A DNA stretch of 64,000 nt from Lentisphaerota bacterium (GCA_015061915.1 SUVR01000005.1:101596-165595); one strand, 5' to 3'; numbered from the stretch's first letter, positions 12,620 to 59,496 are shown. Program-made: numbers and translations. Notes: generated by a model from the letters alone, not told the origin.

Positions 12620-12627
12620 TTCCTGCC

Positions 12628-13096: not shown

Positions 13097-13122
13097 GAAT
13101 ATCGGTAGAAAATCAGAAGAAA

Positions 13123-14463: not shown

Positions 14464-14488
14464 CGGAAAGTATCCTTTCGTTAATTGA

Positions 14489-43588: not shown

Positions 43589-43662
43589 AACCTCATGGTG
43601 TAATGGTAGCACAAGTGGTTTTGGTCCACTTAGTTCAAGTTCGAATCTTGATGAGGTTGCCA
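43589..43662 (+). tRNA. tRNA-Gln (anticodon TTG), CCA encoded
   Basis: Manual fold: acceptor AACCTCA/TGAGGTT; D arm GTG..CAC; anticodon stem AGTGG/CCACT with loop TTTTGGT (anticodon TTG); T arm TCAAG-TTCGAAT-CTTGA; discriminator G followed by CCA. Confidence 0.85.
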
Positions 43663-43702: not shown

Positions 43703-44101
43703 TTATTCTGCTGCGTCTTCCGGTTCTTCCGGGGGAAGTTCCACTGCGATCAGGGCACGCTGCATCATATTGCCGATGTATTGCATCATCAGCGTGCGTG
43801 CTTCAAAGAAAGAAAGTTTTTCACGGTCGATAAACCACTGGATCAAGTCCCGCATAAGGATCGGCTCCGCTTTGATCAACCGGTAAAGTTCGCAGTTGAA
43901 TCCGGTGAGCAGGTGCTTTTTATAATCCCGCATTTTCCAGATCACATTGACGATTTTGGCGAAAAATCCGTGACGCAGCTTGATCTTCAGCTGAATGTAA
44001 TCTTCGCCTTCTTTTTCCAGAACAGCGGCATCATTGATGCGGACCGTGGCACGCATCTGCCGCTCAAAAGAAATAGGCTTTGTCTGCTTTTTCTTTGCCA
44101 T
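43703..44101 (-). CDS. Hypothetical soluble protein (last gene of the ABC/OPT-like operon)
   Basis: 132 aa. Basic N-terminus MAKKKQTKP and acidic C-terminus PPEEPEDAAE. Starts 3 nt after the upstream stop. Confidence 0.5.
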   Translation of the reverse strand: MAKKKQTKPISFERQMRATVRINDAAVLEKEGEDYIQLKIKLRHGFFAKIVNVIWKMRDYKKHLLTGFNCELYRLIKAEPILMRDLIQWFIDREKLSFFEARTLMMQYIGNMMQRALIAVELPPEEPEDAAE

Positions 44102-44104
44102 AGA

Positions 44105-45025
44105 TCAGTCCTTTGCCGTCAGTTTCTGCTGAAAAATGTCTTTCAGTTTTTCCCGTTCTTTCGAGAATTGGGAGCCGAGATGCTCAAACGCATAGATCCG
44201 GTTTTCTGATTTTTTGTAAAATGCGGAAGCGAAGCCGTGCCACCAAGGACCGAGAAGAAAGTCGAAGCCGAACTTGCCTCTGGCACGGTAATCGATTTCT
44301 ACCGTTTCACAGCCGTTCACCGGCGGAAGCTTCCGGATGTCCCGGATCGCATAGCGTCTCGCATAGAGGCAGCGGTGATAAAAGTTTGCCGTATCCGCTC
44401 CCTGCATATAGACGTCTGCCAGACCGAACCGGTGGACGCTGATTTTGTAATGCTTGGCATTTTCAAAATTCATTGTTACCGAGGTGGGAACCGCCTCCAG
44501 ATCCACAAAATGGTATCCTTCCGGCAGACTTACTTCCAGTCCGAACAGCGCAAAAAACTGCCGTTTTGTCGCCGGATCCGGAGCGTTGTCGGTAAAGGAG
44601 TCCAGCATAGGGACGACCAACTCCGCCATATCCTTGCTGTATTTATCAAAAATCCATTCGCAGAGAAGCATTTTAGACAAATTGAAGACGCTGGCATAAA
44701 ACCGTTCTCCCTGCCTTGTATGGGCAAGATAAACCCTGCCGTTGGCGTGGCGGGTGAAACGGATTTTCGGTGCCGTATCTTCTCCCAGATAACGGCGGTG
44801 GACTTCTTCAATGATTCGCTCAATGTCCGGAGATGCATTTATTTTCCGCCAGGAAAACTGCCCCATCGGACCTTTTTCCGTGGCAAAAGAGAAACGTCCT
44901 TCCCGCTCCGCATCATCCAGATCGTAGGCAGTGATCTCCCAGTCTCTGGGGAGCAGAAAAGAAAAACCGGACATCGCTGTCCGGAATTGAGGATGTCTGA
45001 AATGTTTGAGATCAACCATGTTCAT
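44105..45025 (-). CDS. Hypothetical soluble protein
   Basis: About 306 aa from the ATG at 45025 (MNMVDLKHFRHPQF...). The track start at 45052 is a TTG. No TM and no recognisable motif. Overlaps the upstream ATPase stop. Confidence 0.5.
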   Translation of the reverse strand: MNMVDLKHFRHPQFRTAMSGFSFLLPRDWEITAYDLDDAEREGRFSFATEKGPMGQFSWRKINASPDIERIIEEVHRRYLGEDTAPKIRFTRHANGRVYLAHTRQGERFYASVFNLSKMLLCEWIFDKYSKDMAELVVPMLDSFTDNAPDPATKRQFFALFGLEVSLPEGYHFVDLEAVPTSVTMNFENAKHYKISVHRFGLADVYMQGADTANFYHRCLYARRYAIRDIRKLPPVNGCETVEIDYRARGKFGFDFLLGPWWHGFASAFYKKSENRIYAFEHLGSQFSKEREKLKDIFQQKLTAKD

Positions 45026-45755
45026 CACGGATGGACCCGGTGTCGATGTCAAGGTCAGACACGTTTTCGATGTGGTCGATCTTACCCTGATCGATCCAGA
45101 CGATTCTGGAGGATGCCGCCAGCATACGGTGGTCGTGTGTTGCAGAAATGACCGTCACACCGAATTCTTTTGTCATGTTCTTGAACAATTCAATGATCCC
45201 GGCACCGGTCTTCAGGTCCAGGTTTGCAGTCGGTTCGTCCGCCAGCAGAATGGTCGGATTGTTTGCCAGCGCACGGGCAATGGCAACACGCTGCTGCTGA
45301 CCGCCGGAAAGTTCCAGCGGCTTGTGGGTGAGACGCCCGTGCAGCCCCACGAATTCCAGCAGTTCTGCGGCACGCTTTTCCGCTTCTTTGCGGGGAGTAC
45401 CGAGCAGGATCTGGGGGATCGCCGTGTTGTCCAGTGCAGAAAGGTGCCCGATCAGGTTGTAGCTCTGGAACACATAACCGATATAGCGGCAGCGGAAATA
45501 GGCAAGCTGCAGCGGAGAAAGCTTTGTCAGGTCCACATCACCGACCTTGATTGCCCCCTGCGTCGGCGTATCCAGAGCCCCGATCATATTGAACAGCGTG
45601 GATTTACCGGATCCGGAGGGACCCATGATCGAGATGTATTCTTTCCGGTAGATATCCAGATTGATCCCGCTGAGTGCGTGGACTGCGGCATCACCTTTGC
45701 CAAAGGTCTTCCAGATGTTTCTTACAACGATAAAAGGATCTTTTGTTTCTTCCAT
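45012..45755 (-). CDS. ABC transporter ATP-binding protein (MacB/LolD/FtsE-type), module 2
   Basis: Walker [11 protein letters not shown]-loop, signature [15 protein letters not shown], Walker B ILLADEPT, and H-loop ATHD. ATG at 45755 follows GGAGAG. The track start at 45767 is a TTG that abuts the upstream stop. Confidence 0.9.
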   Translation of the reverse strand: MEETKDPFIVVRNIWKTFGKGDAAVHALSGINLDIYRKEYISIMGPSGSGKSTLFNMIGALDTPTQGAIKVGDVDLTKLSPLQLAYFRCRYIGYVFQSYNLIGHLSALDNTAIPQILLGTPRKEAEKRAAELLEFVGLHGRLTHKPLELSGGQQQRVAIARALANNPTILLADEPTANLDLKTGAGIIELFKNMTKEFGVTVISATHDHRMLAASSRIVWIDQGKIDHIENVSDLDIDTGSIRDEHG

Positions 45756-45767
45756 AAGACTCTCCAA

Positions 45768-47729
45768 TTAGTAGGGCAGGGCGCTTGAGGATTTCGAGAG
45801 GAACACAATACCGACGCAGAGCATCGATATCAGACCGCTACCGACAAAGTAACCTGCAGATACAACAATGATCGAACGTTTCCAATTTTCACCGTATTTC
45901 TTGCGGAATACAAACTGTCCCAACACTGCACCGATGAACTGCGGGATCGCCGAGTGCGGCATCGTCTGGTTGAAACCGCGGACAATACCGTAGCAGAGGG
46001 TAGTCGGCGCCGAGAAGAACGCAAACGTACCGAAACTGATCAACCCGGTAATCGTACCAATGATGATGTAGGAGATCCGGAACGCTTCACTGAAGGGCGA
46101 GTAGTAACCCAGCGTGGAGGAGTAGATCAGAGCTGCATTCTTTGCGTTGAATTCCCAGATTTCCATGGTGTAGGGATATGCCGCAGAGGGGACGTCGCTC
46201 AAAGAGAAGATGAAGCTGGAGAATCCGACAGTGGCAAGCAGAATGATCGGGAACAGCAACGCGTCCACCTTCCAGATGGAGCGGAAACTTGTTCCGGTCA
46301 GTTCAGCTGTCTTGTAGAACACGGTCATTGCACCGTAGTTTGCCTGCGGTGTCGGAATAAACCAGATCGCCAACCCCTGATAACCGGAAAGGATGAAGGA
46401 GATTTCACGGATATACGGCACTTCCACCACCTGACCGGCAAGACCTTCCAGTCGTGCGGTCACATAGGAAATCAGCGGTGTGTAAACGATCCCGAAGAAA
46501 ATCAGAACGATCATCACGCCCTTGTGCCAGTCAATCAGCCAGCCGGCGACCAGAATGTAGAGAGACGTGGAGGTGATATAGGTGGCGATGAACAGCCAGT
46601 TCGGAATGTCACCGCGCCCTTTCGGAATCTCATTTTCCTTGATTTCGTCCGGAGTCATATCCGGCTTTTTGCTGCTGGCGCGGATCACACTGATTATACC
46701 GACAACAGCAATTGCCAGTGAAAGACCGATCCCGAAGCTGAAGTAGAAGTCAACGTTGTTGTTGAACAGCGTTTCGACCGTACTCTGCTGTTCTGTCCAG
46801 GAGGGGAGCAGACGCATCTTGAAGAGGATCGGGTTCAGCACGAAGGTAATGATCAGACCGATAAAACTGCCGACCATGGCGAAGAAGGGCAGCACCATAC
46901 CCAGGATCACGTTACCCAGGTCAAATGCCAGACCGGTCGCCACTGCAGGCAGGACTTTAGCCGTGTTCTGTGTCCAGTCAACGAAGGGGATCGGGAAGAT
47001 CTGGATCGTTTCCTTGAGGAACGCCCCGGAAAGAGCCGGGATACCCATATAAAGGAAACCGAACGCCATCCCGATGGCACCGCCGATGGAGAATGCTCTC
47101 CAGCGCCAGGAGCCGCCTTTTTCCCCTTTGTCGGAGAAGTCTTCAGCCAGCGTCATCATGCCCTGAGCCTGCATCGGAGCCATGGGGAAGGGCAGTTTTT
47201 CCACGTCACTGGTCATACGGAAAAGACCGTACCCCAAGATCGTTGCGTCCGCACGTCCGATGATACCGGTGAACAGCATCATACCCAAAGCCGGCAGCCA
47301 CGCTTCCTGAATGAAGGTACGGGGCAGTTCCGCCACGTTGGAAGGCGCATACCATTCCGGGAACTGATCCAGCAGACCGAAGGAGGTTGCAGCTTCGCTT
47401 CGTACCATAAACTGACGGAAGATCAGGTCAATATTACCGCTGGAGATCACAGCCCCTGCCATGTAGAACAGGATGAAGATTTCCGCCTTTTTCAAGGTCG
47501 CGTTGGCGCGTTTTGCCAGTTCGATGAAGAGGATCACCGTCACCCACTGAGCAGCGGCACCGATCCCCACACCGGCGATCAGCTGCATATAGACTGCGCC
47601 GGGGATCATCACGATTGCGATAAAGATCGCACCGAAGAATGCAGAAAGTGTAAAGCCGTCATCGAAGTGCGAAGGCACTTCCATCAGGTTCTTATATTCC
47701 TGTAATTCCTTGTCAAGTTTGTGTGCCAT
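45768..47729 (-). CDS. OPT-superfamily-like polytopic membrane protein, module 2
   Basis: About 653 aa, about 14-16 TM. Motif VEKLPFPMAPMQAQG resembles the OPT/YSL 'KLTYPSGTATA' block. ATG at 47729 is preceded by AAGGAGAG; the track start at 47753 overlaps the upstream gene. Confidence 0.55.
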   Translation of the reverse strand: MAHKLDKELQEYKNLMEVPSHFDDGFTLSAFFGAIFIAIVMIPGAVYMQLIAGVGIGAAAQWVTVILFIELAKRANATLKKAEIFILFYMAGAVISSGNIDLIFRQFMVRSEAATSFGLLDQFPEWYAPSNVAELPRTFIQEAWLPALGMMLFTGIIGRADATILGYGLFRMTSDVEKLPFPMAPMQAQGMMTLAEDFSDKGEKGGSWRWRAFSIGGAIGMAFGFLYMGIPALSGAFLKETIQIFPIPFVDWTQNTAKVLPAVATGLAFDLGNVILGMVLPFFAMVGSFIGLIITFVLNPILFKMRLLPSWTEQQSTVETLFNNNVDFYFSFGIGLSLAIAVVGIISVIRASSKKPDMTPDEIKENEIPKGRGDIPNWLFIATYITSTSLYILVAGWLIDWHKGVMIVLIFFGIVYTPLISYVTARLEGLAGQVVEVPYIREISFILSGYQGLAIWFIPTPQANYGAMTVFYKTAELTGTSFRSIWKVDALLFPIILLATVGFSSFIFSLSDVPSAAYPYTMEIWEFNAKNAALIYSSTLGYYSPFSEAFRISYIIIGTITGLISFGTFAFFSAPTTLCYGIVRGFNQTMPHSAIPQFIGAVLGQFVFRKKYGENWKRSIIVVSAGYFVGSGLISMLCVGIVFLSKSSSALPY

Positions 47730-47730
47730 C

Positions 47731-50700
47731 TTATGCCTTCTCTCCTTCCGCATCAGCAGCGCTGTTCAAATTCTGGGCTGCAAGTTCCCGATAATGCATG
47801 ACCGTTTCCACCGGCAGGGAACGCCACAGGAGGAACTGGTTTCTGATTTCACCGACGAAACGGGTGTTCCCGCGCAGCCACGCTCCCTTGGAGCCGTCCT
47901 TGCGGATGATACGCACCGTTACAACATCAATTCCTTCGATATCGGAAGGAGCTGAGTACATACTCATCTCTTCTGCAACACCCAGGTCAAAGGGCGCAAG
48001 AGTGAAGTCGGCGGTCAGCATATAGCCATCCGTCAGTTCGTTCTTGCCGTGAGTGATCCGGATATTGGAGGCGGCAAAGCTGCCGAGAGAGCTGTCTGCA
48101 TGGTTTGCAAAGTGTTCACTGATGAACACCAGAATACCGCCGAAGTCCACACGGGAAACCGTGAAGGGGAACTGGAAGCAGAGGATATCGCCATCCGGCG
48201 GCGGCATTTTCCATTTTCTTGCGACGTCCGGGCTGGCGGCACGGCCCGCCTTGATGGCAGGATAAACCGTGGAGAGCAGAACGATCGCCATAACGATCAG
48301 GATCGTGTAGACCGTGGTCATGGAGGAGAAGTTCATCTGCGGTGCTTCCAGCACACCGCGTTTCGCCAGTGCAGTAAGGACCGCATTGGTGACCTGGCTG
48401 AGCAGATAGCCGCCGAGACCGCCGATCACGGCGTAAACGCTGGATTCAGCGAAGAACAGGCAGCTGACATCTTTCGGGGAGAGTCCCAGTGCGCTGAAGG
48501 TGAAGATTTCACGTTCGCGGTCGGCAATGGAGCCAAGCAGCGAGCTGAGGATGATCAAAGCACCCAGCAGCAGCGGGACCAGCAGGTTGCTGAGACCGGA
48601 GGCTTCAAAGACCGGAGCCATGAAGTGCCGTTCCACTCCGTTGGATGCAGTGTTGGAGTAAACAATACCGAAGGTGACTTCGGCAATGTCCGTCGCATCC
48701 TTGCGGATATCGATTTCACTGCTCTTCGGGTAGAAGAGGACGGCATTGACGAAACCGTTGACCTTCTTTGCTGTTTCGTAGTCGGTCAGCATCGTCAGGT
48801 CCGGAGAACTCCAGATGAAGTTACTGGCGTCAACATAAGAACTGTTCAGAACAGCAAAGATGTTGGAGGCTTCAGCCGTGGCTGTCTGGTTGAAGTTCGG
48901 CGGAGTGACCTTACCGTTGTCAAGGTAGGTGAAATCGTCCAGATCCTTTGCTTCAAAGACGCCATCCAGCCGGACCGGCATCGTTCTGAGGTAGAAGATG
49001 TCGCCCACCTTCAGATCGAGAGATTCCGCTCTGACTTTAGAGAGATAGACACCGGGAACCGGGTCCGCAGCAGGAGCCGTGTACGGAGTTCCGTTCTTTT
49101 CCGCTTCTGCTTTTTTCTGCAGTTCAGCAGCCGTTTTTTCTCTCAGTTTCACCATCAGTTTACCCAGTTTTTCGGAGCTGATGGTTTCTTCCGGTTCAAA
49201 ACCGACCACCGCATCCAGTTCAATCGTCTGGGGCAACGGTTTGCCATCCAATGTTCCGTGGAATTTCGGATTGTAGATGACGTTTGCCTGATTGGGATAG
49301 GTGGGAAGCATATAGAACGGAGAATTGTAACTCGCCGAACGGAAGAATACATGATAATCATCTTTGTAAAGTTCCTTCATGGAGCGGCAAAGTGGTTCCA
49401 GCAGATCCACGTGCTGCGGCAGGAAGGATTCAATACGCTGTTCGCCGGATCCGCTGCCCATATAAACCGGGCGTACATAGGTAGTGGAATCGAAGGAGGC
49501 GAAGGAGATGATCGTGAAGGTCAACAGTACGACCGTCAAGATGGTCAGAAGTGTTTTGACCGGACGGTTTCTCATACTGGAGACACCGATCATGATCGCC
49601 GCCAGCAGCATACTGTTTTCAGAATTCACACGGTGAGCAGAGGTATCCATTCCCTGCATGGCGAGCAGTTCCGATTTGAACCGGCTCATCACAATGTAGA
49701 TCACCATAACACTCATCACGATGATGAAGAATGCAATGAAGATGATCATCGGGGACTGGGACATGGCAAATGCCGGGTGCGTGAAATAGAGCATCAGGAA
49801 GGTGCCGATGAAGAAGACCAGGATCCAAGCCATCTGCTTGTAAATGCTGGTTGCGCCGATAAGGAGGCGTTCCAACGCAAAGGAGAAGGGGATCGTCAGG
49901 ATCAACAGGATCAAGACACTCTTGACCAGGTCGTTGATCAGATTTTTGAGCGGTCTGTATGCCTGTACCGCCAGCGTCTGCCCGAAGATTTCGTGGGCTC
50001 TTGCCAGGTTCAGGTTGCCTTCTTCATGAGCTGCTTTCGCCGCCTGTTTGTGCTGTTCCGCTTTGTCGTGATAAAGTTCAACAACACTGTTGAAGATATT
50101 ACGGCTGTGCAGTTTTTTCAGACGCTGCAGGTTCAGCGCAATCGTGTTGTCGATCGCAACACGGTTTACATTCAGGTTTTTCAGAGCTTCCGGTTCAATG
50201 GAGATACCATCGCCGGTCGGGACATCATCCGTAACTTTCCCCAACATAAATGTTTCATTGTTGAAGTACAGTTTGGACTTGATGTTGCTGTCGGCGTAGG
50301 CATAGCCGTCACCGGTTGCCACACGGGCATAGGTTTTGGAGTTTTTGAACGCACTGTCCGTGAAGCCGTTGACCAGACTCAAAGAGCCGGCGAAGTTGGA
50401 AGTCAGCGGAGCGTAGGGATAGAAGTGCGGACCGCCGTATGCACGGAACAGTTTTGTCTTGTCGGCACTGGAGTTGATATATTTCACGTGACCGACTTCA
50501 TCAAAACAGATAGCACCGCAGTGGAGGTTGAAGTTTTCTCTGCCCCATCTGCCGCCGCCGGTCAGCAACGGCATGGTGGTGTAGCCGATCTGATTGATCT
50601 GTCCGATAGCAGCCTGCGAGAAGCCAGCCATCGGAAGGATACGGTCGTATTCATTCTGCTGAACGAGGGCGAGGGCGCCGGCGGCAGGTCCGTCAATTTC

Positions 50701-53124
50701 TTTGCCGTCTTCAGAAAGAATGTTGAACTGTCTGCCCTGAGGACTGCCGGTGTAGTAATAGTTTACGATGTTATCATACATTTTGGATGCTTCAAACATC
50801 GTTGTCATTGCTTTATCCGTGAAGGATTTATCGTTCACGAGGACCGTAAACATTTCGGTCATGACCGGGATCATTGCCTTGAGGTCGTCCGCCTTGTGCT
50901 TGCCGGGCATTTCGTCAAAATCATACTGATTGGAAATACTGCGGAGCGTGGTGGAGAATGTTTCAGACAGGGGCAGAGATGCCGCGTGAGGCAGGTATAC
51001 CAGAGAAAGGCTGCTGAGCGTATTGACCGCATTGCTGCCAATACCCAGACTTTCTTTGAAGAAGAGCTGGCTGGTCAGCGGCATTTGGTTCAGTGAAACT
51101 TCAAACTTTTCAAAGAACTTTCTGTAGTTTGCCGGTTCCAGTGTGTGAGAATAATGCAGCGCCTCATACGTTCTGGTAGCAAAGAAGAACGGTTCTGTAG
51201 CAGAAGCCAGATCAAAGTAATAGATCCCTCTCAAATTGTAATTTTTGGTGGCTTCGGCAATATCGATCCAGCAGTCGCCCATGCGGATGGAGAGAGCCAG
51301 TTCCTTTTCGCGCTGTTCAAGCGTGTTCCGGATTCCCTGTGCAAAGGAGGCAAGCATCTTTCTTTCAGCAGGTGTTTTGATCAGGCGTTCGTTGATGAGA
51401 CGACGCATATTCGCAACATCTTTTTTCGTGGTATCAAGATATTTCTTTTCTGCCGTCAGTGCATCGATCTGCTTCTGCAGTTCGGGGGAGACTGTTGCAT
51501 TTTTACCGGGGTTCAGCTTCCGCAGCAGAACGTTGATTTCCGCAAGACGGTAGTTCTTGGCATTGTAGTCTTTGATGACTGCATTTCTGAGCAGCAGACG
51601 GACTGCGCCGTTGGTCGGTTCCAGCGGATCGCCTTCATCGCCGTTTCTGAAATCCTTTTGAATTTCATCATATTTTTCGATCAGCTCGTAATACTCTGCT
51701 TCCAGTGCTGCTTTTTTTGCAGCATCAGCCGTTTGGGAAATTTCTTTTTCCTTGGACTGGATCGCAGCAAGGGTGCTATCCATTTCAGCTTTCAGCGTTT
51801 CCAGTTTGGCATCCGGCATTTTTGTGCTGAAGATCAGAGCAAAATAGATGATCAGCGCAATACCCATCAAAGAAATCCAGCTGCCCCAGGTGAGATAACG
51901 TTTTGCGTTGAACTCGACCTTTTCTGTGCCTTTTTTCCAGATCAGGGCAAGAATGAAAAGTCCGGCGGCAAGAATCAGAACGCCAACTGCAACGCCGATA
52001 TATTTTGTGTAGTCTTTCACCGTGTATTCGGTTTTACTGCGCACGATCGGAGCAGGCGTTTCCAGAATATTCAACTTAACTCTGTTGTCTGCAATTTCCT
52101 GTTCAAAACCGGATTTGTATGTGGAGATCTCCGGCGGATTGGCGGCATCATTTTTTCTTTTGAATACCGGGTAATAGAAGAACCGCAGCCCGTCATAGGC
52201 ATTGAAAGAGGATCCGTAGAAGACAATAAATACGGAATTATCCAATTTCTGTTTGGAGAGATTGAGCGCCGTTTCGGCAAGCAGAGCAATGTTTTCTGCC
52301 TGTCTTTCGCCGGCGACCATACCGGGAACCGTTCCGAACGTATCAAGTCTGGCGTTCAGGAACATCGCTTCGGAAGCGGAACCTTTGATCTCGGTCCAAA
52401 GGTTGATCCCTTCCACCTGTTTCCAACGGGAATGGCAGAGCAGAGATGCTTTCGGCAGTTTTTCTTTTGCAACTTCCGGTGTAGCCTTCAGCAGATCGTG
52501 CTTCAAGGCTTCATCACGGGTAATGTAAAAATAGGGGAATGCAATATGATACTGGCTGAGTACCTTCGCCGCATCCCACTGAGTTGCAGTGTCATTGCCA
52601 ACGAACACAATGGCTTTTGCACCTTCGGGGAAGAAGACTTTGGGATAGTAGCTTTCGCCCCAATCCAACAGGACGATCTTGCCGTCAACATGACCGAAAT
52701 CATTGCGCTGGAGACGTTCGTTGGAGATATAGACCAGCGGACCTTCCAGTTTCTTTTCACCGGTGGAAATCAGTGCCGCATTGTTCGGCGCCAGCGGATA
52801 AAATTCGACATCTTTGCCGTTGACTTTGAATTCCTTTTCTGTGACTTCCGGAACCAGAGTCGGGTATGTCTGACGCTTCAGAACGATTCCTTTGTCGCGG
52901 AAAGATTTTTCGATCGCTTCAACTGCTTTCAGGTATTCCGGACTGCCGGGAACCCGGTGCGGCAGAGCGGCAAGCTCCTGCTTGATCGTATCGTAAATGG
53001 CAGTCGTTGCGGGTACCGTTTTTGCCGCTTCAACCGTTTTCTCCGGGGTCGCCGGAGCTGCCTGCAGCATAAAGGCAGCAGAACACAGGATCAGCGGAAG
53101 AATTTTTTTCAATCTGGTCATCAT
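47731..53124 (-). CDS. 1797-aa multidomain membrane protein: signal peptide, degenerate M28/PA peptidase-like ectodomain, coiled coil, large unknown ectodomain, FtsX/MacB-type permease unit, C-terminal tail
   Basis: Signal peptide [24 protein letters not shown]-like GPLVYIS..VDGKIVLLD..GAKAIVFV. M28-like FLNARLDTFG / AGERQAENIALLAETA. MacB-type TM1 SMRNRPVKTLLTILTVVLLTF. FtsX box SIADREREIFTFSALGLSPKDV followed by 3 TM. ATGA overlap with the upstream ATPase stop. Confidence 0.8.
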   Translation of the reverse strand: MMTRLKKILPLILCSAAFMLQAAPATPEKTVEAAKTVPATTAIYDTIKQELAALPHRVPGSPEYLKAVEAIEKSFRDKGIVLKRQTYPTLVPEVTEKEFKVNGKDVEFYPLAPNNAALISTGEKKLEGPLVYISNERLQRNDFGHVDGKIVLLDWGESYYPKVFFPEGAKAIVFVGNDTATQWDAAKVLSQYHIAFPYFYITRDEALKHDLLKATPEVAKEKLPKASLLCHSRWKQVEGINLWTEIKGSASEAMFLNARLDTFGTVPGMVAGERQAENIALLAETALNLSKQKLDNSVFIVFYGSSFNAYDGLRFFYYPVFKRKNDAANPPEISTYKSGFEQEIADNRVKLNILETPAPIVRSKTEYTVKDYTKYIGVAVGVLILAAGLFILALIWKKGTEKVEFNAKRYLTWGSWISLMGIALIIYFALIFSTKMPDAKLETLKAEMDSTLAAIQSKEKEISQTADAAKKAALEAEYYELIEKYDEIQKDFRNGDEGDPLEPTNGAVRLLLRNAVIKDYNAKNYRLAEINVLLRKLNPGKNATVSPELQKQIDALTAEKKYLDTTKKDVANMRRLINERLIKTPAERKMLASFAQGIRNTLEQREKELALSIRMGDCWIDIAEATKNYNLRGIYYFDLASATEPFFFATRTYEALHYSHTLEPANYRKFFEKFEVSLNQMPLTSQLFFKESLGIGSNAVNTLSSLSLVYLPHAASLPLSETFSTTLRSISNQYDFDEMPGKHKADDLKAMIPVMTEMFTVLVNDKSFTDKAMTTMFEASKMYDNIVNYYYTGSPQGRQFNILSEDGKEIDGPAAGALALVQQNEYDRILPMAGFSQAAIGQINQIGYTTMPLLTGGGRWGRENFNLHCGAICFDEVGHVKYINSSADKTKLFRAYGGPHFYPYAPLTSNFAGSLSLVNGFTDSAFKNSKTYARVATGDGYAYADSNIKSKLYFNNETFMLGKVTDDVPTGDGISIEPEALKNLNVNRVAIDNTIALNLQRLKKLHSRNIFNSVVELYHDKAEQHKQAAKAAHEEGNLNLARAHEIFGQTLAVQAYRPLKNLINDLVKSVLILLILTIPFSFALERLLIGATSIYKQMAWILVFFIGTFLMLYFTHPAFAMSQSPMIIFIAFFIIVMSVMVIYIVMSRFKSELLAMQGMDTSAHRVNSENSMLLAAIMIGVSSMRNRPVKTLLTILTVVLLTFTIISFASFDSTTYVRPVYMGSGSGEQRIESFLPQHVDLLEPLCRSMKELYKDDYHVFFRSASYNSPFYMLPTYPNQANVIYNPKFHGTLDGKPLPQTIELDAVVGFEPEETISSEKLGKLMVKLREKTAAELQKKAEAEKNGTPYTAPAADPVPGVYLSKVRAESLDLKVGDIFYLRTMPVRLDGVFEAKDLDDFTYLDNGKVTPPNFNQTATAEASNIFAVLNSSYVDASNFIWSSPDLTMLTDYETAKKVNGFVNAVLFYPKSSEIDIRKDATDIAEVTFGIVYSNTASNGVERHFMAPVFEASGLSNLLVPLLLGALIILSSLLGSIADREREIFTFSALGLSPKDVSCLFFAESSVYAVIGGLGGYLLSQVTNAVLTALAKRGVLEAPQMNFSSMTTVYTILIVMAIVLLSTVYPAIKAGRAASPDVARKWKMPPPDGDILCFQFPFTVSRVDFGGILVFISEHFANHADSSLGSFAASNIRITHGKNELTDGYMLTADFTLAPFDLGVAEEMSMYSAPSDIEGIDVVTVRIIRKDGSKGAWLRGNTRFVGEIRNQFLLWRSLPVETVMHYRELAAQNLNSAADAEGEKA

Positions 53125-53900
53125 ACTTTAAGCTCCTGTCCGTCTTTTCTTGCAATCTGGGCGCGACGGATATCAACTTCAGCACTCAATTCGATCCGGT
53201 CGATCAGACCATCACTGAGCCAAAGCATTCGATCGCTTACCGTAAGCATATTGTGGTCGTGTGTAACGCAAACGACAGTAACGCCGTCGTTCTTATTCAA
53301 ATCGTAGAGAAGATTGTGAACATCATTCCCCGTCTTGAAGTCAAGGTTTGCTGTCGGTTCGTCGCAGAGGATCAGGGACGGGTCATTCGCCAGAGACCGG
53401 GCGATTGCAACACGCTGCTGCTGACCGCCGGACATTTCTTTCGGTCTGTGGTTCCAGCGTTTTTCCAAACCGACGCGTTCCAGAAGGCGCATTCCTTTCT
53501 TACGTGCTTCTTCGGGGCTCTTACCGGCGAAAATCATCGGCAGGGTCACATTTTCCAATGCTGTCATAACCTGATTGAGGTTGAACTGCTGGAACACATA
53601 GCTGATCTTCCGGCAACGGAGGAACGCCAGTTCAGAAGCCTTGAGCTGTGCCATATCCACTTCGTCAATAAAGATTCGTCCTGCAGTGGGAGTGTCAAGG
53701 GCTCCGATCATATTGAACAGAGTTGATTTACCGGATCCGGAGGGTCCCATGATACAGATATATTCTCCGCGGTAGATCTCCAGGGAGATATTTCTGAGCG
53801 CATGCGTGACTTCCGCCCCGCGGTGATAGGTCTTTTCGATGTGGTGCACACGCACCAGAACCTCTTTACCTTTCGCATATTCTACTGGATCGTAAGGCAT
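53121..53900 (-). CDS. ABC transporter ATP-binding protein (MacB/LolD/FtsE-type), module 1
   Basis: [36 protein letters not shown]. Shares the identical block [23 protein letters not shown] with the 45012-45755 product. Confidence 0.9.
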
Positions 53901-53921
53901 ATTGTTATCCTCTCGTCAAAA

Positions 53922-55511
53922 TTATTCCACACGCATTGCTTCCATCGGAGCCATACGGGCTGCTTTCGCAGAGGGGTACAGCGAGGAAAGCACCGAGAGC
54001 AGCACGCCTGCCAGCAGGGAGAACAATGCTGCAAAACCGATCATACTCCAGTCGAACGAGGCAAAAACACGAAGTCCGACCTGGAATACCGAACTGGACA
54101 AAGCAACGATGAATCCGAGGATGAGACCGATCACACCACCGATCACGCCCTGGATCATTGCTTCAAGAACAATCTGGATCAAAATAAAGGAGTCTGTTGC
54201 ACCGAGACACTTCAGTGTTGCAATTTCACGGAAGCGTTCTGTGATACTCATAAGCATAGCATTGGTGATCCCGACCACGCAGACCAGGAAGGAGAGACAC
54301 ATCAGATAAATCTGATCGGGTGTAAATCCTTTTGCATCGTCCAGCGTGTTGATGTCGAGCTGGAGTTCCAGCTTCTGCAGTTCTTTCTGCATATCATCGT
54401 TTTCACGGATGGATTCGAGGTCCGTTCTGGGAATCAGTTTCAGCTGATCATCGGGAAGTGACTTCACTTCGTCGGGATTGCCGCCGAAATAGATCACGTG
54501 CTGCAGTTCGCGCAGATTTCTTTTCTGCTGACTGGGCGCTTCATTAAAGACACGCCATGTTTTATTGGTATCAAGATGAGCCAGTTTTTCGTCCATACGG
54601 CTGTACTGATTTTTGCCGTAGACCTGACGCCATCTGATACGGTAGGCTTCATTGGAAAGAAGCATTTTGACTTTATTGGTGCGTTCCTGGACATCCAGGT
54701 AGTCGACGATCATTTTTGTTTCGTCATCGGTGATAAACACGTTCAAAGCCGCCAGTTTATCGCGCCACTGCTGATTGATCTGTTTCTGAGCATTCAGATC
54801 CAGCAGATGTTTTGCCAGGACCTGTCTTTCTTTCAGTTCTTTCCCGTCGGTTGCGCGTGCGGGGAAAGCCTTGTCATTCCGCACAGCCTGCAGTTTTGCG
54901 AAAGACTGTTTCAGTTCGGTCCGGTATGCTTTATAGCCGTCGAGATAGGTTTTGAGTTTATCTTCACCGCCGGGGATCCGGATCCCGCCGAGTTCACGGG
55001 TCTTTTTCAGGAATTCGTCATAACTGCCATCCTTGAGCAGCATTTCCAGCTGAGCGGAATCCTTGTTCTGACCGAAAAGAGCTTTGCGTTTCCCGAAGGG
55101 CAGTTTTTCAAAGAAACGGAGATAAATCATTTCCTGTGCGGCGTTATCAACAAACGTCTGCATCTGTTTCTGATCTTTGCCGAGCATTTTAGCCAGGCGG
55201 TCGAAATCGCCGGGACTCTTTCTGGCATCAACCAGCATGGAGACGAAGTCTTTTTCTGTAATAGAAGCATAGAGCATATTCAGGATACGCGCAGCTTTGC
55301 GGCTTTCCAGAATTTCTTTTTCCACGCCTTCTTTTACGGAGTTTCTGAAAATATTACTGCACTGCAGGAACATAAAGAACGCCACAGCCAGAATCACCAC
55401 GCTCAAGGTGAGCAGTGAACGCATAAAACGGTGCCGGATACTGCTGATACAGAAATCCAAAGTTTCGGCAAAGGTCATTTGCCTTTGTTTTTTGATAATG
55501 ATTTCTTCCAT
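53922..55511 (-). CDS. FtsX/MacB-type ABC permease with ~340-aa helical ectodomain, module 1
   Basis: N-terminal RHRFMRSLLTLSVVILAVAFFMF (MacB TM1 pattern), a K/E/Q-rich ectodomain, and a C-terminal FtsX domain ITERFREIATLKCLGATDSFI... ending ..YPSAKAARMAPMEAMRVE. Confidence 0.85.
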   Translation of the reverse strand: MEEIIIKKQRQMTFAETLDFCISSIRHRFMRSLLTLSVVILAVAFFMFLQCSNIFRNSVKEGVEKEILESRKAARILNMLYASITEKDFVSMLVDARKSPGDFDRLAKMLGKDQKQMQTFVDNAAQEMIYLRFFEKLPFGKRKALFGQNKDSAQLEMLLKDGSYDEFLKKTRELGGIRIPGGEDKLKTYLDGYKAYRTELKQSFAKLQAVRNDKAFPARATDGKELKERQVLAKHLLDLNAQKQINQQWRDKLAALNVFITDDETKMIVDYLDVQERTNKVKMLLSNEAYRIRWRQVYGKNQYSRMDEKLAHLDTNKTWRVFNEAPSQQKRNLRELQHVIYFGGNPDEVKSLPDDQLKLIPRTDLESIRENDDMQKELQKLELQLDINTLDDAKGFTPDQIYLMCLSFLVCVVGITNAMLMSITERFREIATLKCLGATDSFILIQIVLEAMIQGVIGGVIGLILGFIVALSSSVFQVGLRVFASFDWSMIGFAALFSLLAGVLLSVLSSLYPSAKAARMAPMEAMRVE

Positions 55512-55513
55512 GA

Positions 55514-57595
55514 TTACACCTGATAGCTGATGGTGGAGGGATTCTTGGTAATGATATAAAAGATCAGCCCGCTGATGATAAACAGACCGGAAGCTGCAAT
55601 TTCACCAAAGATCAAGCCGAGGAAAAGCGGTTTCATCTTGATGTAGTTCTTTTCACCGCCGAGCTTGACCACGATGGTTCTGAGGAGCCAGCCAAGCAGG
55701 AAGCTGAACCAGATCACGTTCGCCGGACCGGTGTTCCAGATACAGAAGATTACTGCATGGAAGGGCCACCAGAGGAAACGGGTCCGCATAAAGCCGGTAA
55801 AGAATACTGCTGCGATACCAAGAATGAAATATACCACATAGTTGATCTTTTCCGGTTCGATGGATTTGATTCTTTCACCGATGTTGGAGAAGTTGAATGC
55901 ACCTTTGAAACGTTCCTGCCATGTGGTTTCCGGAGTATAAACCGGTTCTGCCAGCTGAGCGTTGTTGTTCAGGTGTTCGATTTCAGAATAAGAGTCTCTG
56001 ATACCCAGAGACCATTCGGTTTTCTGCGGGTCTTTGTTGTTGCCGAGGCTGTAATACTGCCAGATGTGCATGAAGAAGGCAGCGCCGAATGCGATAAAGA
56101 TCGAAATCATAACGATCATGCCGACACGGCGGAGTTTGACACCGGCATCGTTGGTCACCTTCATACCGGTGGCGACATAGGGCATCATCAACTGCTTCAT
56201 ATCGCTGCAGAGAACACCGCTTGCCTGACCGGATGCCATCAGGTTTTCCGGTCCCAGCGCCAGACCACCAAAAACTTTTGCCAGGAAAGAGTTGGGCATA
56301 AACGGGGAAGCCATAAGGGGAATACCCGCTTCGCAGACGATTCGCGTGAACACCAGATACATCATGATCAGAAGCAGGGTCGTTGCCGATGCCATAATGA
56401 TGTCCATCCCGAACAGCGTGAACATAAACACAAGGAAGAGAGCGGTGAAAATGAACAGTCTTGCACCGAAAACGGCGCCCTGATCTTCTTCCGAAACACG
56501 CTTCCAGGTGATAGCCTTCCAGAAAATCGAACCGTAATATTTTCTGCCGAGAATGACCATCATGATCACAAATGCCAGATAAGCACCGGCGCGGAAGACC
56601 TGATTTTCCATACTGGAAGGAGCAACGCCGGTCGCTTCATAAACTTCCGTAGCAAACAGAAGATAGACAAAACCGTTCAACCCGACGCTGAGGCTGAGTG
56701 CCGGAGCGAGGAAGTAGGCGATCCCCACGATCAGGAACATGATTTTCACCGCACCGAAAATGCCGGAACAACCGGTCTGACCGATGATGGGGAAGGTTTC
56801 GCTGAGACCGGAGAGCATATAAGTCATCTGGATCGGCTTGAACTTTGTGTTGGGGTCCGAAGCCTGGGCGAAATTGTAAAGATGAATAATAAGGACAAAA
56901 AGGAAAGACATCCAGAAAAGTTTGGAGCGGAAAATATCAGCGAAGTGGCTGTTTTCATCCTTCTTTTCAAACAGGGACTGTGCAACCGTTGCGAGCGGGT
57001 AAGTAAGTTTTTCGTTCCGGATCCACTGACGATGGACGATCAACAGCAGAGCAAGAGACATAAGAGCGACCAGCAGGATAACCGTACCCCAGTAGATCAG
57101 GGGCATTTCCCAGGCGGACCAGGGTACTTCGCCGAAGGGCAGCCATTCACCGATACCGGTCTGGAACTGTGCAATGTTTTCACCGGGTTCGGGCAGGGTG
57201 TCGTGGTTCAGGTAATCGCCGATGTGTTTTTCCTGCCAGGAGCGGTTGCTGGAAAGAGTATGAACGGTCATTGCGGACTGCGTTGCAAACTGTTTCATCC
57301 AACCGTACCAGGCAAAGCCGCCGGCGGTGAGCGTCATGACGAATGCGACCGCAAGTTCTTTGACATTCAGCGCGAGACGCGGAACGTATCTGGAACAAAA
57401 CGGGTTCCAGAGCAGGCAGATCAGGAAGAAATAGAAATAAATCCCGATGCCGAGCTGATGGTTCAAGATTGACTGTTTTGCGATAGTCGGGCCGAATTGA
57501 CTTCCTGCAGCGATCAAAAGGATGCCGAGTAACCCGGCAATGATCGCTTTCGGCGTAAACGCCCGCGTTTTTGCTTTCTCAATGTTTCCGTCCAT
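55514..57595 (-). CDS. OPT-superfamily-like polytopic membrane protein, module 1 (first gene of operon)
   Basis: 693 aa, about 16 TM. NEKLTYPLATVAQSL closely resembles the OPT/YSL KLTYPSGTATA block and the paralogue motif at 45768-47729. Confidence 0.55.
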   Translation of the reverse strand: MDGNIEKAKTRAFTPKAIIAGLLGILLIAAGSQFGPTIAKQSILNHQLGIGIYFYFFLICLLWNPFCSRYVPRLALNVKELAVAFVMTLTAGGFAWYGWMKQFATQSAMTVHTLSSNRSWQEKHIGDYLNHDTLPEPGENIAQFQTGIGEWLPFGEVPWSAWEMPLIYWGTVILLVALMSLALLLIVHRQWIRNEKLTYPLATVAQSLFEKKDENSHFADIFRSKLFWMSFLFVLIIHLYNFAQASDPNTKFKPIQMTYMLSGLSETFPIIGQTGCSGIFGAVKIMFLIVGIAYFLAPALSLSVGLNGFVYLLFATEVYEATGVAPSSMENQVFRAGAYLAFVIMMVILGRKYYGSIFWKAITWKRVSEEDQGAVFGARLFIFTALFLVFMFTLFGMDIIMASATTLLLIMMYLVFTRIVCEAGIPLMASPFMPNSFLAKVFGGLALGPENLMASGQASGVLCSDMKQLMMPYVATGMKVTNDAGVKLRRVGMIVMISIFIAFGAAFFMHIWQYYSLGNNKDPQKTEWSLGIRDSYSEIEHLNNNAQLAEPVYTPETTWQERFKGAFNFSNIGERIKSIEPEKINYVVYFILGIAAVFFTGFMRTRFLWWPFHAVIFCIWNTGPANVIWFSFLLGWLLRTIVVKLGGEKNYIKMKPLFLGLIFGEIAASGLFIISGLIFYIITKNPSTISYQV

Positions 57596-57660: not shown

Positions 57661-57688
57661 ATAATATCACAACTTCTATTTTTTTCAA
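57661..57688 (-). promoter_or_regulatory. Candidate sigma-70 promoter of the ABC/OPT-like operon
   Basis: On the minus strand: TTGAAA (57688-57683), 16-nt spacer ending TGa, TATTAT (57666-57661). Lies about 65 nt upstream of the ATG at 57595. Confidence 0.35.
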
Positions 57689-57824: not shown

Positions 57825-58367
57825 TTATTCTGCTTTTCCGGCAGGCTTTGCGATTTCCAAAACCTTGAGGACTGCCCGGTCTGTATCCGCATTTTTATTT
57901 TTCTTCTTGCGTTCGGTTTCTGCTTTCAGGCGATCAAGGCGTCCCTGCATCTGCCGGATCCGTTTTTCATACTGGCGGATCTGCTTTTCCGTGAAATTCA
58001 GATGTCTCTCAAATTGCGTGGAGATCTTGTTGCGCAATTCCTGTTCAAGCCGTTTTTTTTCAGCCTCATCCGTGGTTGCGTGGTAGCGCTGACCGATGGC
58101 GATCAGTTCCTGTTTGTGTTTTTCAAATTCTTTTTTCCAGTATGCCCGCGCCTGCTCCCGGAAGGCAGCAGGATTTTCACGGAATAATTTTTTCAGCTGA
58201 TTTTTTTCTGCATCCGGCAGCTGATCAAGAAAAGGCGGATAAGGTCTTTCTGTATGACGATGAAGACTTTTTGCCGGAGCCGGCGGAGGAGGAGCGGCAA
58301 AGGTCTGCGGAAGCAGCGCTGCAACGAAAAGCAGAGCTGAAAAATGGATGAAATATTTGCTTTTCAT
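57825..58367 (-). CDS. Secreted helical protein, Spy/CpxP-like (periplasmic stress-chaperone-like)
   Basis: Signal peptide MKSKYFIHFSALLFVAALLPQTFA followed by K/E/Q/R-rich helices. It is the third gene after the ECF sigma and anti-sigma genes. Confidence 0.45.
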   Translation of the reverse strand: MKSKYFIHFSALLFVAALLPQTFAAPPPPAPAKSLHRHTERPYPPFLDQLPDAEKNQLKKLFRENPAAFREQARAYWKKEFEKHKQELIAIGQRYHATTDEAEKKRLEQELRNKISTQFERHLNFTEKQIRQYEKRIRQMQGRLDRLKAETERKKKNKNADTDRAVLKVLEIAKPAGKAE

Positions 58368-58402
58368 AATGTTATGACTCCGTATTGCATCTTGTTCTGT
58401 TT

Positions 58403-58936
58403 TTATTTTTCAAAGGGGTTGGAAGTGAGTGCAGTGTAGCTCATATCCCATGCGGAAACGGCAGCGATATCCAGGTCGACTTCATTGAAATCATCCGAAA
58501 GATCCGAGATTTCAGTCAGGACATCGGTCCAGGCGAGATTGGATTGATCGCTTGTTGTAACTGTATTGTTTGCAAGGCGATCTGCTGAAAAACGATTTGT
58601 TTCTCCCGTGAGTTGAAGGGTGTCGGAAGCGACCGGGGACTGTTCCTGCATTGTTGTGAAACAGAGAATGGAAAAAGAGACAGCAAAAGCAGCGGCAATG
58701 CTGCCGGACCAGAAAAGGATCCGTTTTTTCTGAGCTCTCTGATTTTTTTTCAAATTCTGTCTGGCGGCAGCCATAATGAAAGAATCGATCTGTGCAGACG
58801 GAACCGCAGCGGAATGTTTCAATTCCGCTTTCAGATCTTGCATAAATGTTTCATCCTGTTTGCTTAACATCTGCTGTTCCATTTCATTTTTCTTTTGATT
58901 TTTCATAATCCCGCCTCCTTTTTTTAACTTATCCAA
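58403..58936 (-). CDS. Putative anti-sigma factor (single-pass membrane protein)
   Basis: 177 aa with one TM (ILFWSGSIAAAFAVSFSILCF). Directly downstream of, and overlapping, the ECF sigma gene. An alternative start exists at 58906. Confidence 0.5.
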   Translation of the reverse strand: MDKLKKGGGIMKNQKKNEMEQQMLSKQDETFMQDLKAELKHSAAVPSAQIDSFIMAAARQNLKKNQRAQKKRILFWSGSIAAAFAVSFSILCFTTMQEQSPVASDTLQLTGETNRFSADRLANNTVTTSDQSNLAWTDVLTEISDLSDDFNEVDLDIAAVSAWDMSYTALTSNPFEK

Positions 58937-59496
58937 CCCGAAAGTTGCGTTCTCAGCTTTTTCAAAGCGTACTGCATTCTTGCCAGGCAGGTGTTAATGG
59001 AGCATTTTTGTATGACGGCGATCTCTTTGAATGAGATGTTCTCGCATCTCATCAGGAAAACCGCTCTGATCTCCGGAGAAAGTGTCTGTACTGCCTCCTG
59101 AATCGCATCTGCCAGTTCTCTGTTCTGAATGTTTGAATCCGGCGCAAAGGATTCTGCAGCGGGAAGGATCGCCTCAAATTTTTCATCGAACTCGGACTCT
59201 GCCCGCCGCTTTCCTGCCCGGAAGAGATCGATTGTCTGGTTGTATGCGATTCGCATCAGCCAGGCGGAAAACTTTTCCCGGTTTTCATAGCGGTGCAGAT
59301 TGTCGATCGCTTTCAGCCAGGTGCGCTGAAAGATGTCATCCGCATTTGCTTTTTCCCCACGCAGCAGATTTTGCAGGTACCCGTAAAGGGGCTGCCGGTA
59401 TCTTTCATAGAGCAGATCGAAAGCCTGTGCATTGCCACCCAGATACGAGCGGATCAGCTCCTGATCAGTTTGTATGTCCGGTGTTTCTGCAGTCAT
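58924..59496 (-). CDS. ECF-type RNA polymerase sigma-70 family factor
   Basis: 190 aa. Region 2 (AFDLLYERYRQPLYGYL...DIFQRTWLKA..F.AWL.RIAYNQTIDLFR) and region 4 (FLMRCENISFKEIAVIQKCSINTCLARMQYALKKL). Confidence 0.9.
   Translation of the reverse strand: MTAETPDIQTDQELIRSYLGGNAQAFDLLYERYRQPLYGYLQNLLRGEKANADDIFQRTWLKAIDNLHRYENREKFSAWLMRIAYNQTIDLFRAGKRRAESEFDEKFEAILPAAESFAPDSNIQNRELADAIQEAVQTLSPEIRAVFLMRCENISFKEIAVIQKCSINTCLARMQYALKKLRTQLSGWIS

Follow-up and report, generated by a model that had tools for sequence, protein, structure and literature searches.

The window analysed here, 64,000 nucleotides (nt) of DNA from a Lentisphaerota bacterium (GCA_015061915.1 SUVR01000005.1:101596-165595), carries on its minus strand eight closely packed open reading frames (ORFs) at 43703-57595, which are designated G1 to G8 in the order of their transcription. 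They constitute one real and conserved operon, the products of which bring together two FtsX-type permease subunits (G2 and G4), two ATP-binding cassette (ABC) ATPases (G3 and G6), two polytopic membrane proteins (G1 and G5) assigned to the OPT/YSL transporters by predicted structure and by family profile, respectively, and two proteins free of transmembrane or signal segments (G7 and G8). The parts are familiar, the wiring is new and conserved, and in this locus one has a promising candidate for an envelope machine of a new kind. An earlier note on this DNA, made from the sequence alone, knew of no characterised system of such composition; the full-text literature that was searched agrees with it in making no mention of DUF6785/DUF6784 (the Pfam families of G1) or of any OPT-FtsX combination, and in containing no description of the system.

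The arrangement of these genes is not a matter of chance, because their order is conserved in other genomes. A scan of one genome per species, with an alignment of nine G1 sequences as query, yielded 24 loci, and further loci came from contigs encoding homologues of G1, G5 and G7; gene order was assigned by tblastn and phmmer with the eight window proteins. The order G1-G2-G3-G4-G5-G6, all on one strand, recurs in ~20 loci in at least four labelled phyla, with identity of G1 down to 25-33%. The operon is found in metagenome-assembled genomes (MAGs) of Lentisphaeria and Victivallales (L004-L010, L027, L028/L029 and L030), Verrucomicrobiota (L011 and L024) and Planctomycetota (L012, L013, L018 and L021), in a MAG labelled only as belonging to the PVC (Planctomycetes-Verrucomicrobia-Chlamydiae) group (L017) and another labelled Spirochaetes (L031), and in two unlabelled metagenome contigs (L001 and L032). 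Several contigs stop before G6; in each of these, every gene that is present is in register. Nearly all of the related loci being from MAGs, the taxonomy given for them can be no more reliable than the binning behind it. The neighbourhood conservation that the earlier note had proposed to check is thus seen across three phyla of the PVC group and in one MAG labelled Spirochaetes.

Conservation is uneven along the operon. Identity to the window proteins among orthologous loci is 66-99% for G3 (the most conserved gene of the operon), 56-98% for G5, 60-87% for G6, 34-90% for G4, 25-94% for G2 and 26-94% for G1, the upper values coming from L004, a MAG that is ~94% identical to the window. The G5 family comprises more than 3,600 clusters at 90% identity (E<=1e-3), the top 120 of which are all at least 53% identical, and its named members are entered at NCBI as 'peptide transporter' or 'OPT/YSL family transporter'. 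For G4, a search with the last 738 residues brings up 1,068 cluster representatives (50% identity, E<=1e-30), mostly proteins of 1,580-1,900 amino acids (aa). This is a common system, not a rare one, and usually there is a single copy of the operon.

The earlier note divided the locus into two putative modules, G1-G3 and G4-G6, each comprising an OPT-type protein, an FtsX-type protein and an ATPase. Among loci long enough to judge, neither triad is found without the other. The sole departure qualifies the split: a Planctomycetota MAG with the operon in full at one locus (L018) has at another (L016, 9908-16872, plus strand) only paralogues of G1 and G4, paired with overlapping codons. No ATPase, G2 or G5 is in the vicinity of this pair, the neighbours of which are AraC, PhyH, beta-helix and FGE-sulfatase genes.

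Direct reading of the window confirms eight ORFs at the positions that the earlier note had given, and also its assertion of tight packing, since at each of the seven junctions the genes either overlap or are no more than 21 nt apart; several of the gaps contain GGAG-type ribosome-binding sites. G1 (55514-57595, 693 aa; all genes of the operon are on the minus strand) is followed after a 2-nt gap (55512-55513) by G2 (53922-55511, 529 aa), and G2, after a 21-nt gap with GAGAGGA inside it, by G3 (53121-53900, 259 aa). G3 and G4 (47731-53124, 1797 aa) overlap in ATGA (53121-53124). G5 (45768-47753) has 661 aa as an ORF and 653 aa from its likely start at ATG 47729, which is preceded by GGAGAGAAGG and makes the G4/G5 junction TAA-G-ATG. 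G6 (45012-45767) has 251 aa as an ORF and 247 aa from its likely start at ATG 45755, which is preceded by GGAGAG and leaves a 12-nt gap after G5. The ORF of G7 (44105-45052) probably yields a protein of ~304 aa from ATG 45025 or 45019, the choice of start being supported by an N-terminal motif, HF.HP.F, that is conserved in orthologues; with either start, G7 overlaps G6. G8 (43703-44101, 132 aa) comes after a 3-nt gap. A hairpin and T-run resembling a terminator at 44984-44967 (minus strand), just past the G6 stop codon, lies within the G7 coding region, given the conserved N-terminus, and is probably a chance occurrence.

The earlier note regarded the promoter-like site ahead of the first gene as the only good one in the region. 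That site is the best sigma-70-like match (TTGAAA-16-TATTAT with an extended TG, 57661-57688, minus strand, 66 nt upstream of the G1 ATG; 10 of 12 positions, as a consensus match only), but it is not alone: a second 10/12 match lies within G5 (46722-46693), and the total of promoter-like sites in the region, 11 compared with 12.5 expected from shuffled sequence, is not above chance. The promoter argument is therefore weak by itself, and the case for a single transcription unit rests instead on gene packing and conservation. The tRNA that the note placed after the last gene is also there, a tRNA-Gln (TTG) identified by ARAGORN at 43589-43662, 40 nt beyond G8; it is on the plus strand, convergent with the operon, and marks the downstream boundary.

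G1 matches Pfam DUF6785 (PF20581; 230.7 bits, 3.8e-68) and DUF6784 (PF20580; 76.6 bits, 1.8e-21), both of which are present in all 47 of 47 homologous G1 clusters; by sequence it has no match to Pfam OPT. G5 does pass Pfam OPT (PF03169), with 33.2 bits and a gathering score of 25.8, over model positions 127-619 of 623, and on that profile is an OPT-family polytopic protein. BLASTP detects no match between G1 and G5, and global hhalign is uninformative; local hhalign gives a match that is weak but collinear from end to end (580 columns, E 7.7e-4). Sequence and profile comparison of the two proteins thus ranging from none to weak, a test of the fold of G1 was needed. An AlphaFold2 model of G1 built from 16 sequences (pLDDT 87, pTM 0.89) matches in the PDB, by Foldseek, only the barley OPT/YSL transporter HvYS1 (7wsr_A and 7wst_A; E 1.7e-8, probability 1.0, TM-scores 0.58/0.66), on which it superposes over ~700 alignment columns; all other matches have TM-scores of ~0.1-0.16. 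As modelled, G1 is a polytopic membrane protein with the OPT/YSL fold, and the description of G1 and G5 as OPT-like in the earlier note is upheld for both. The two proteins have in common the motif EKL-x-[YF]-P-x-A, which resembles a conserved OPT motif. Searches of PDB sequences with G5 and with the G1 profile gave no matches.

Genes of the DUF6785 family also occur singly (L002, L003, L015, L020 and L023). These loci look catabolic, the neighbours being AraC regulators, PhyH, esterases, DUF2961 and GH39-like enzymes, which suggests that the family transports nutrients. In two of them (L002, 81-4294; L015, 1436-5813) the gene immediately upstream of DUF6785 overlaps it by its codons and encodes a ~700-aa protein that has a Kdo/WaaP-like kinase domain, and in L015 this pair is followed by DUF2961 and GH39-like/F5_F8_type_C genes. 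The combination of kinase and DUF6785 looks like a second and different conserved partnership of the transporter family.

G2 and G4 are both recognised by Pfam FtsX (PF02687; 69.3 bits, 4e-19 and 46.7 bits, 4e-12, respectively; cut-off 25.5), and both have the type VII ABC layout of one transmembrane (TM) helix, a big loop and three TM helices, as the earlier note's assignment to MacB/FtsX-type systems would have it. In G2, hydropathy places TM1 at ~33-52, the loop at ~55-400 (~345 residues) and TM2-4 at ~403-522. The loop, which in an alignment of 11 orthologues is poorly conserved and has a helix-rich look, is probably extracytoplasmic, its sidedness following from the hydropathy layout only. 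Pfam MacB_PCD (PF12704) has no match at E<=0.1 in either G2 or G4 by sequence, and hhalign shows no relationship of the G2 loop to the domains of G4.

G4 is a giant by the standards of such subunits. It begins with a signal peptide, after which come, in this order, an M28/PA aminopeptidase-like domain (residues 43-314; 52183-52998, minus strand), a large and probably extracytoplasmic region, three TM helices, an FtsX 4-TM unit with a loop domain of ~290 aa, and a C-terminal domain. The three conserved TM helices and the FtsX unit together span residues 1060-1630 (48235-49947, minus strand), as delimited by Pfam and PDB matches and by invariant columns. Within them, hydropathy sets FtsX TM1 at 1187-1214, the loop at 1215-1505 and TM2-4 at 1505-1627; the Pfam FtsX segment is 1518-1628, the PDB matches to LolC and LolF fall at 1511-1632, and the ortholog alignment has invariant charged residues, E1085 and R1086, in membrane helices. 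The loop domain is presumably extracytoplasmic, on the same kind of hydropathy layout. The C-terminal domain (residues 1635-1797, ~160 aa; 47734-48222, minus strand) is strongly conserved, with many invariant columns, and is probably cytoplasmic; neither it nor the loop and middle regions of G4 show any relationship to G7 or G8 in hhalign comparisons.

The N-terminal arm of G4 has the look of a peptidase that has lost its chemistry. The G4 family profile matches M28/PA aminopeptidases of known structure (2ek8, 5.6e-12; YwaD, 6hc6, 7.7e-7), with each zinc-ligand motif replaced in the G4 alignment (SHHDS by ArlDt, GANDD by Glvpgd and GAEE by yGss). Nor are the M28 ligand columns conserved among 128 representatives of the family: the first has His in 14 of them, and there is no conserved EE pair. 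Distant members of the family score 22.7-31.9 bits with Pfam Peptidase_M28 (cut-off 21.3), over model positions 1-78 only, and the window G4 itself has no Pfam M28 match. Since its zinc-ligand motifs are replaced and the ligand columns are unconserved across the family, the domain is to be read, from its alignments, as a catalytically dead pseudo-peptidase. It is followed in the window and its closest relatives (L005, L007 and L010) by a lineage-specific insertion, identified by alignment and hydropathy, of two TM helices and a charged, helix-like linker (residues ~372-510; 51595-52011, minus strand), which most orthologues do not have. In L031 (5250-9987, plus strand) G4 is split into adjacent genes, for a 566-aa N-terminal part that is M28-like and a 1009-aa FtsX part, so that the giant G4 is evidently a fusion of separable units.

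Certain copies of these genes are interrupted. In L004 (JAGAPM010000009.1), the near relative already referred to, G4 has two in-frame stop codons (TAG at 16914 and TAA at 17628, at the places of Q822 and K1060 in the window protein), which mark either a pseudogene or a fault of assembly; the G4 of the window has no such interruption. In L008 (CASERY010000089.1) the orthologues of G1, G4 and G5 have nine in-frame TAG codons (10337, 16336, 16903, 16966, 17245, 18574, 19006, 19503 and 19998) and no in-frame TAA or TGA, eight of the nine aligning to A, L, Q or K of the window proteins. The genes otherwise look intact, for which reason TAG may be read as a sense codon in that lineage. Long ORFs of 1015 and 720 aa on the strand opposite G4 (48049-53307, plus strand; ~50% G+C) are not genes: they arise because TTA, CTA and TCA codons are nearly absent from the operon (2, 0 and 9, respectively, in 4,645 codons).

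G3 and G6 are ABC ATPases of the LolD/MacB/FtsE type (E 1e-56 to 1e-68 with the LolD, MacB and FtsE models). The identical block that led the earlier note to call them paralogues is indeed present in both and is 23 residues long. They nevertheless fall into two separate orthogroups, for members of the G3 group are 65-97% identical to one another and those of the G6 group 59-87%, compared with ~50% from one group to the other. Every orthologue checked, of G3 (n=7) and of G6, has an intact Walker A, Q-loop, SGGQ and Walker B; a simple pattern for the H-loop matched six of the seven G3 sequences and missed one orthologue, while in G6 all motifs are intact. No NCBIfam equivalog model claims them: scores are 227.8 for LolD (cut-off 307.75), 198.1 for FtsE (264.85) and, for G3 with YbbA, 192 (336).

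G7 and G8 contain no TM or signal segment, and hydropathy finds no N-terminal hydrophobic segment in G7; to this extent their earlier description as soluble proteins of unknown function stands, with the difference that folds can now be proposed. The AlphaFold2 model of G7 (pLDDT 91) consists of two tandem Mog1/PsbP-like alpha/beta domains, matched by Foldseek to PsbP, Mog1 and the Eag-type chaperone SciW (probability 0.99-1.0; target-normalised TM-score 0.44-0.60 for one domain). Weaker matches that extend over both domains are to the type VI secretion immunity proteins TplEi and PA3488. Sequence identity to these fold matches is 10-15%, so that they stand for likeness of fold only, and the G7 profile has no match among PDB sequences. 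For G8, one of four orthologues matches Pfam PqqD (PF05402) at 2.4e-4 and the window protein does not; in the PDB, the G8 profile comes nearest to a lasso-peptide PqqD chaperone (9x90_B, E 0.067), in an alignment that is almost full-length. G8 is weakly PqqD/RRE-like, that is, akin to a peptide-binding winged helix, which is a lead and not a finding. G7 and G8 follow G6 in L028, L030 and L031, in the last at only 30% and 33% identity to the window proteins.

Type VII ABC systems (MacAB, LolCDE, FtsEX and YbbAP) are mechanotransducers, each defined by its periplasmic partner. With its FtsX TM2-4 domains, 4-TM units with large loops and motif-intact LolD/MacB/FtsE-type ATPases, the locus belongs to this superfamily, and it remains to say which of its members, if any, it represents. 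Judged from its sequences it is not MacAB-TolC, despite the shared FtsX-type TM2-4 of G2 and G4, the arrangement of one TM helix, large loop and three TM helices, and the MacB/LolD-type ATPases. It lacks a MacA/HlyD adaptor and a TolC-like gene, MacB_PCD is undetected, and G2 scores 49 bits with the MacB model, compared with a cut-off of 966 and with 257 for a canonical MacB-like permease of a related genome; these are the grounds for setting MacAB-TolC aside. Moreover, the ATPases are separate polypeptides, and there are two different FtsX subunits, two ATPases and two OPT-type proteins. The earlier note had already remarked on the absence of adaptor, TolC-like and solute-binding genes, and correctly so: none of the eight products matches the HlyD, outer-membrane factor or solute-binding families, and there is no adaptor or outer-membrane factor among the flanking genes that were tested.

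Equivalog scores, all far below their cut-offs, likewise make it neither LolCDE nor FtsEX by sequence. FtsEX-EnvC (and also FtsEX-PcsB, -CwlO and -RipC) offers the instructive parallel of a type VII mechanotransducer with a dead peptidase-like module outside the membrane. The dead domain of EnvC is, however, LytM/M23, whereas that of G4 belongs to a different family, M28/PA, and is fused to the FtsX subunit; the locus has no gene for an amidase or other hydrolase, and scores 38.4 with NCBIfam FtsX_Gneg (cut-off 255), in addition to the low FtsE score already given. We know of no OPT-fold partner of FtsEX. Among solved structures and NCBIfam models, it is to Lol proteins that the FtsX segments come closest (7arh_C, LolC; 9w37_A, LolF), and a heteromeric pair of FtsX-type subunits, as in LolCDE/LolDF, is plausible here. 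The differences are that there are two ATPases instead of the one LolD, that G4 is four times the size of LolC/LolE, that LolA/LolB-like genes are missing, and that lolCE scores 40.5 with a cut-off of 362 (LolD falls short as noted above).

Among OPT/YSL transporters (TC 2.A.67), to which G5 is linked by Pfam and G1 by the superposition of its model on HvYS1 (PDB 7wsr, 7wst), a family of oligopeptide and metal-chelate transporters, the known members are stand-alone, proton-coupled importers. In contrast, G1 and G5 are each bound by the operon to a type VII ABC module, and G1 is so divergent that its Pfam assignments are to domains of unknown function. The Aat dispersin-export system (AatPABCD) is comparable in that a MacB/FtsX-type permease and ATPase are encoded together with an unrelated polytopic inner-membrane protein that serves the same cargo; its polytopic partner is an Lnt-like acyltransferase, unlike the OPT-type proteins here, and it also differs in having a TolC-like outer-membrane protein, an adaptor and a known cargo gene. 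YbbAP-TesA is a type VII ABC system that is reported (PMC12646458) to extract hydrophobic compounds; the same source presents type VII systems that control periplasmic hydrolases as an established paradigm, with FtsEX-EnvC and YbbAP-TesA as the examples. YbbAP-TesA resembles the present locus in being of type VII, in having TM helices beyond the 4-TM unit and in having an extracytoplasmic partner with a hydrolase fold. That partner is an active, separately encoded lipid hydrolase, there are no OPT-fold subunits, and the YbbA score of G3, as already mentioned, is low.

How might such an assembly work? That it is one functional unit is argued by abutting and overlapping codons, by the same order in ~20 loci and by the separate, ancient and motif-intact orthogroups of G3 and G6. 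The reading that we favour, tentatively and by analogy with the known families, is that a type VII mechanotransducer acts on a peptide-like substrate that the OPT-fold proteins carry inward across the cytoplasmic membrane. ATP binding and hydrolysis by G3 and G6 in the cytoplasm would drive long-range movement of the extracytoplasmic domains of G2 and G4, with no solute passing through the FtsX subunits. By analogy with EnvC, in which a LytM domain is catalytically dead, the M28/PA module of G4 would serve for binding and not for cleavage, what it binds being a peptide-like ligand or else a partner hydrolase. The route through the cytoplasmic membrane itself would be formed by G5 and G1, and the solute that takes it is most likely one with a peptide in it. 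Peptide-containing material would be captured or released outside under the control of ATP and then taken up by way of G5/G1, and G7 and G8 might bind the peptide, or report on it, at the cytoplasmic side. The inward direction is preferred because it keeps the known behaviour of both families, the type VII proteins as mechanotransducers and the OPT proteins as importers, and because the solitary DUF6785 paralogues, in their catabolic-looking loci, suggest nutrient transport. To our knowledge, all characterised OPT/YSL proteins (TC 2.A.67; HvYS1, 7wsr, 7wst) are importers.

Several considerations weigh against this proposal. We know of no type VII ABC system that works with an importer. G3 (66-99%) and G5 (at least 53% across phyla) are conserved to a very high degree, which would be more in character for a housekeeping envelope machine than for a nutrient system. 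The periplasmic domains of G2 and G4 match neither MacB_PCD nor any ligand-binding family. The combination of a PqqD/RRE-like protein with an Eag-chaperone-like fold suits the handling of cargo before export at least as well. The assignment of G8 is weak, and G7 and G8 are absent after G6 in L032.

In a first rival, transport is outward and in two steps: G8 (RRE-like) and G7 (chaperone-like) recognise a peptide or small protein in the cytoplasm, the OPT-fold proteins pass it outward, and the FtsX modules extract or expel it from the periplasmic face. MacB expels cargo that is brought to the periplasm by another translocator, and the characterised MacB-type systems act outward. Also in favour of this scheme are the SciW-like fold of G7 and the PqqD-like character of G8, neither of which has a signal peptide, and an operon that is usually single-copy with highly conserved G3 and G5. 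Its difficulties are that no OPT-family exporter is known to us, that the G8 assignment is weak, and that there is no cargo gene, MacA/HlyD adaptor or outer-membrane factor in the operon or adjoining it. In L028 alone (11381-16385, plus strand), three genes downstream of the operon encode an MsbA-like ABC exporter, an ArnA-like formyltransferase/epimerase fusion and an ArnD-like deacetylase, of the lipid A modification type, and this speaks for an export function; this downstream context is not found in L030, L031 or L032. We regard two-step export as doubtful, and as the main rival of the inward model all the same.

In a second rival, the FtsX heterocomplex would be an extractor of the Lol or YbbAP kind, pulling a lipid, lipoprotein or lipid-linked peptide from the inner membrane, with the OPT-fold proteins as scaffolds or flippase-like partners. 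In NCBIfam and the PDB, the FtsX segments are best matched by LolC, LolE and LolF, which is a resemblance in favour of this reading; the very strong conservation and the invariant charged E1085 and R1086 in the membrane helices of G4 are in keeping with it, and YbbAP-TesA (PMC12646458) supplies a precedent for the extraction of hydrophobic compounds. The resemblance does not extend to the equivalog scores, those for Lol, FtsX and MacB all being far below their cut-offs (lolCE, 40.5 with 362 required), nor to partners, since the operon is without a LolA/LolB-like or hydrolase gene, and the dead M28/PA domain and the PqqD-like protein favour peptides over lipids. An extractor of this kind is distinctly unlikely. 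Least likely of all, and very improbable, is that a pair of OPT peptide importers and a pair of MacB-like pumps, all of the ordinary sort, merely share an operon, for, although each family is able to work alone, solitary DUF6785 genes exist and related genomes have a separate canonical MacA-MacB cluster, the strict order with overlapping or abutting codons is kept across phyla at 25-35% protein identity, neither triad is found alone in the loci that allow a judgement (bar the L016 pair), and that pair, a G1-G4 couple with overlapping codons, itself argues for a direct partnership of OPT-fold and FtsX proteins.

Upstream of G1 the neighbours vary between loci (UxuA, DnaB, DNA ligase, NUDIX and unknowns). 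In the window, the genes directly upstream (57825-59496, minus strand) are for an ECF (extracytoplasmic function) sigma factor (58924-59496), a 177-aa protein that is possibly its anti-sigma factor (58403-58936) and a periplasmic Metal_resist protein of the Spy/CpxP type, the match of which is below the Pfam cut-off (57825-58367). The three resemble an envelope-stress module. Since the upstream context is not conserved, neither the ECF sigma factor gene nor the Spy-like one is part of the system. The canonical MacA-MacB cluster of related genomes (adaptor-like protein, ATPase and MacB-like permease) lies ~7 kb upstream of G1 in L005 (738-4206, minus strand) and is similar in L004 and L007; its counterpart in the window would fall just past position 64000.

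The partners that are conserved with the type VII proteins of this operon are two OPT/YSL-fold membrane proteins (G1 on the strength of its model) and a fused, apparently dead aminopeptidase-like arm. Families annotated as 'hypothetical', 'peptide transporter' or DUF make up the system in Lentisphaeria, Verrucomicrobiota, Planctomycetota and beyond, and it is not the oddity of one MAG. A bolder proposal, which we consider rather unlikely, is that the operon represents an unrecognised, PVC-wide class of envelope machine in which type VII ABC mechanotransducers and OPT-fold conduits are joined physically, ATP gating or driving transport through the conduits, with the dead-peptidase arm of G4 as the extracytoplasmic receptor. 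If physical ABC-OPT coupling were true, it would represent a third mode of connection between an ABC motor and a membrane conduit, and it might underlie the unusual uptake of large or peptide-containing substrates that has been reported for Planctomycetes and their relatives. Solving the system would give DUF6785/DUF6784 a role, show whether OPT-fold proteins couple to ATP, and provide a handle on the envelope biology of the PVC group, where genetics is sparse.

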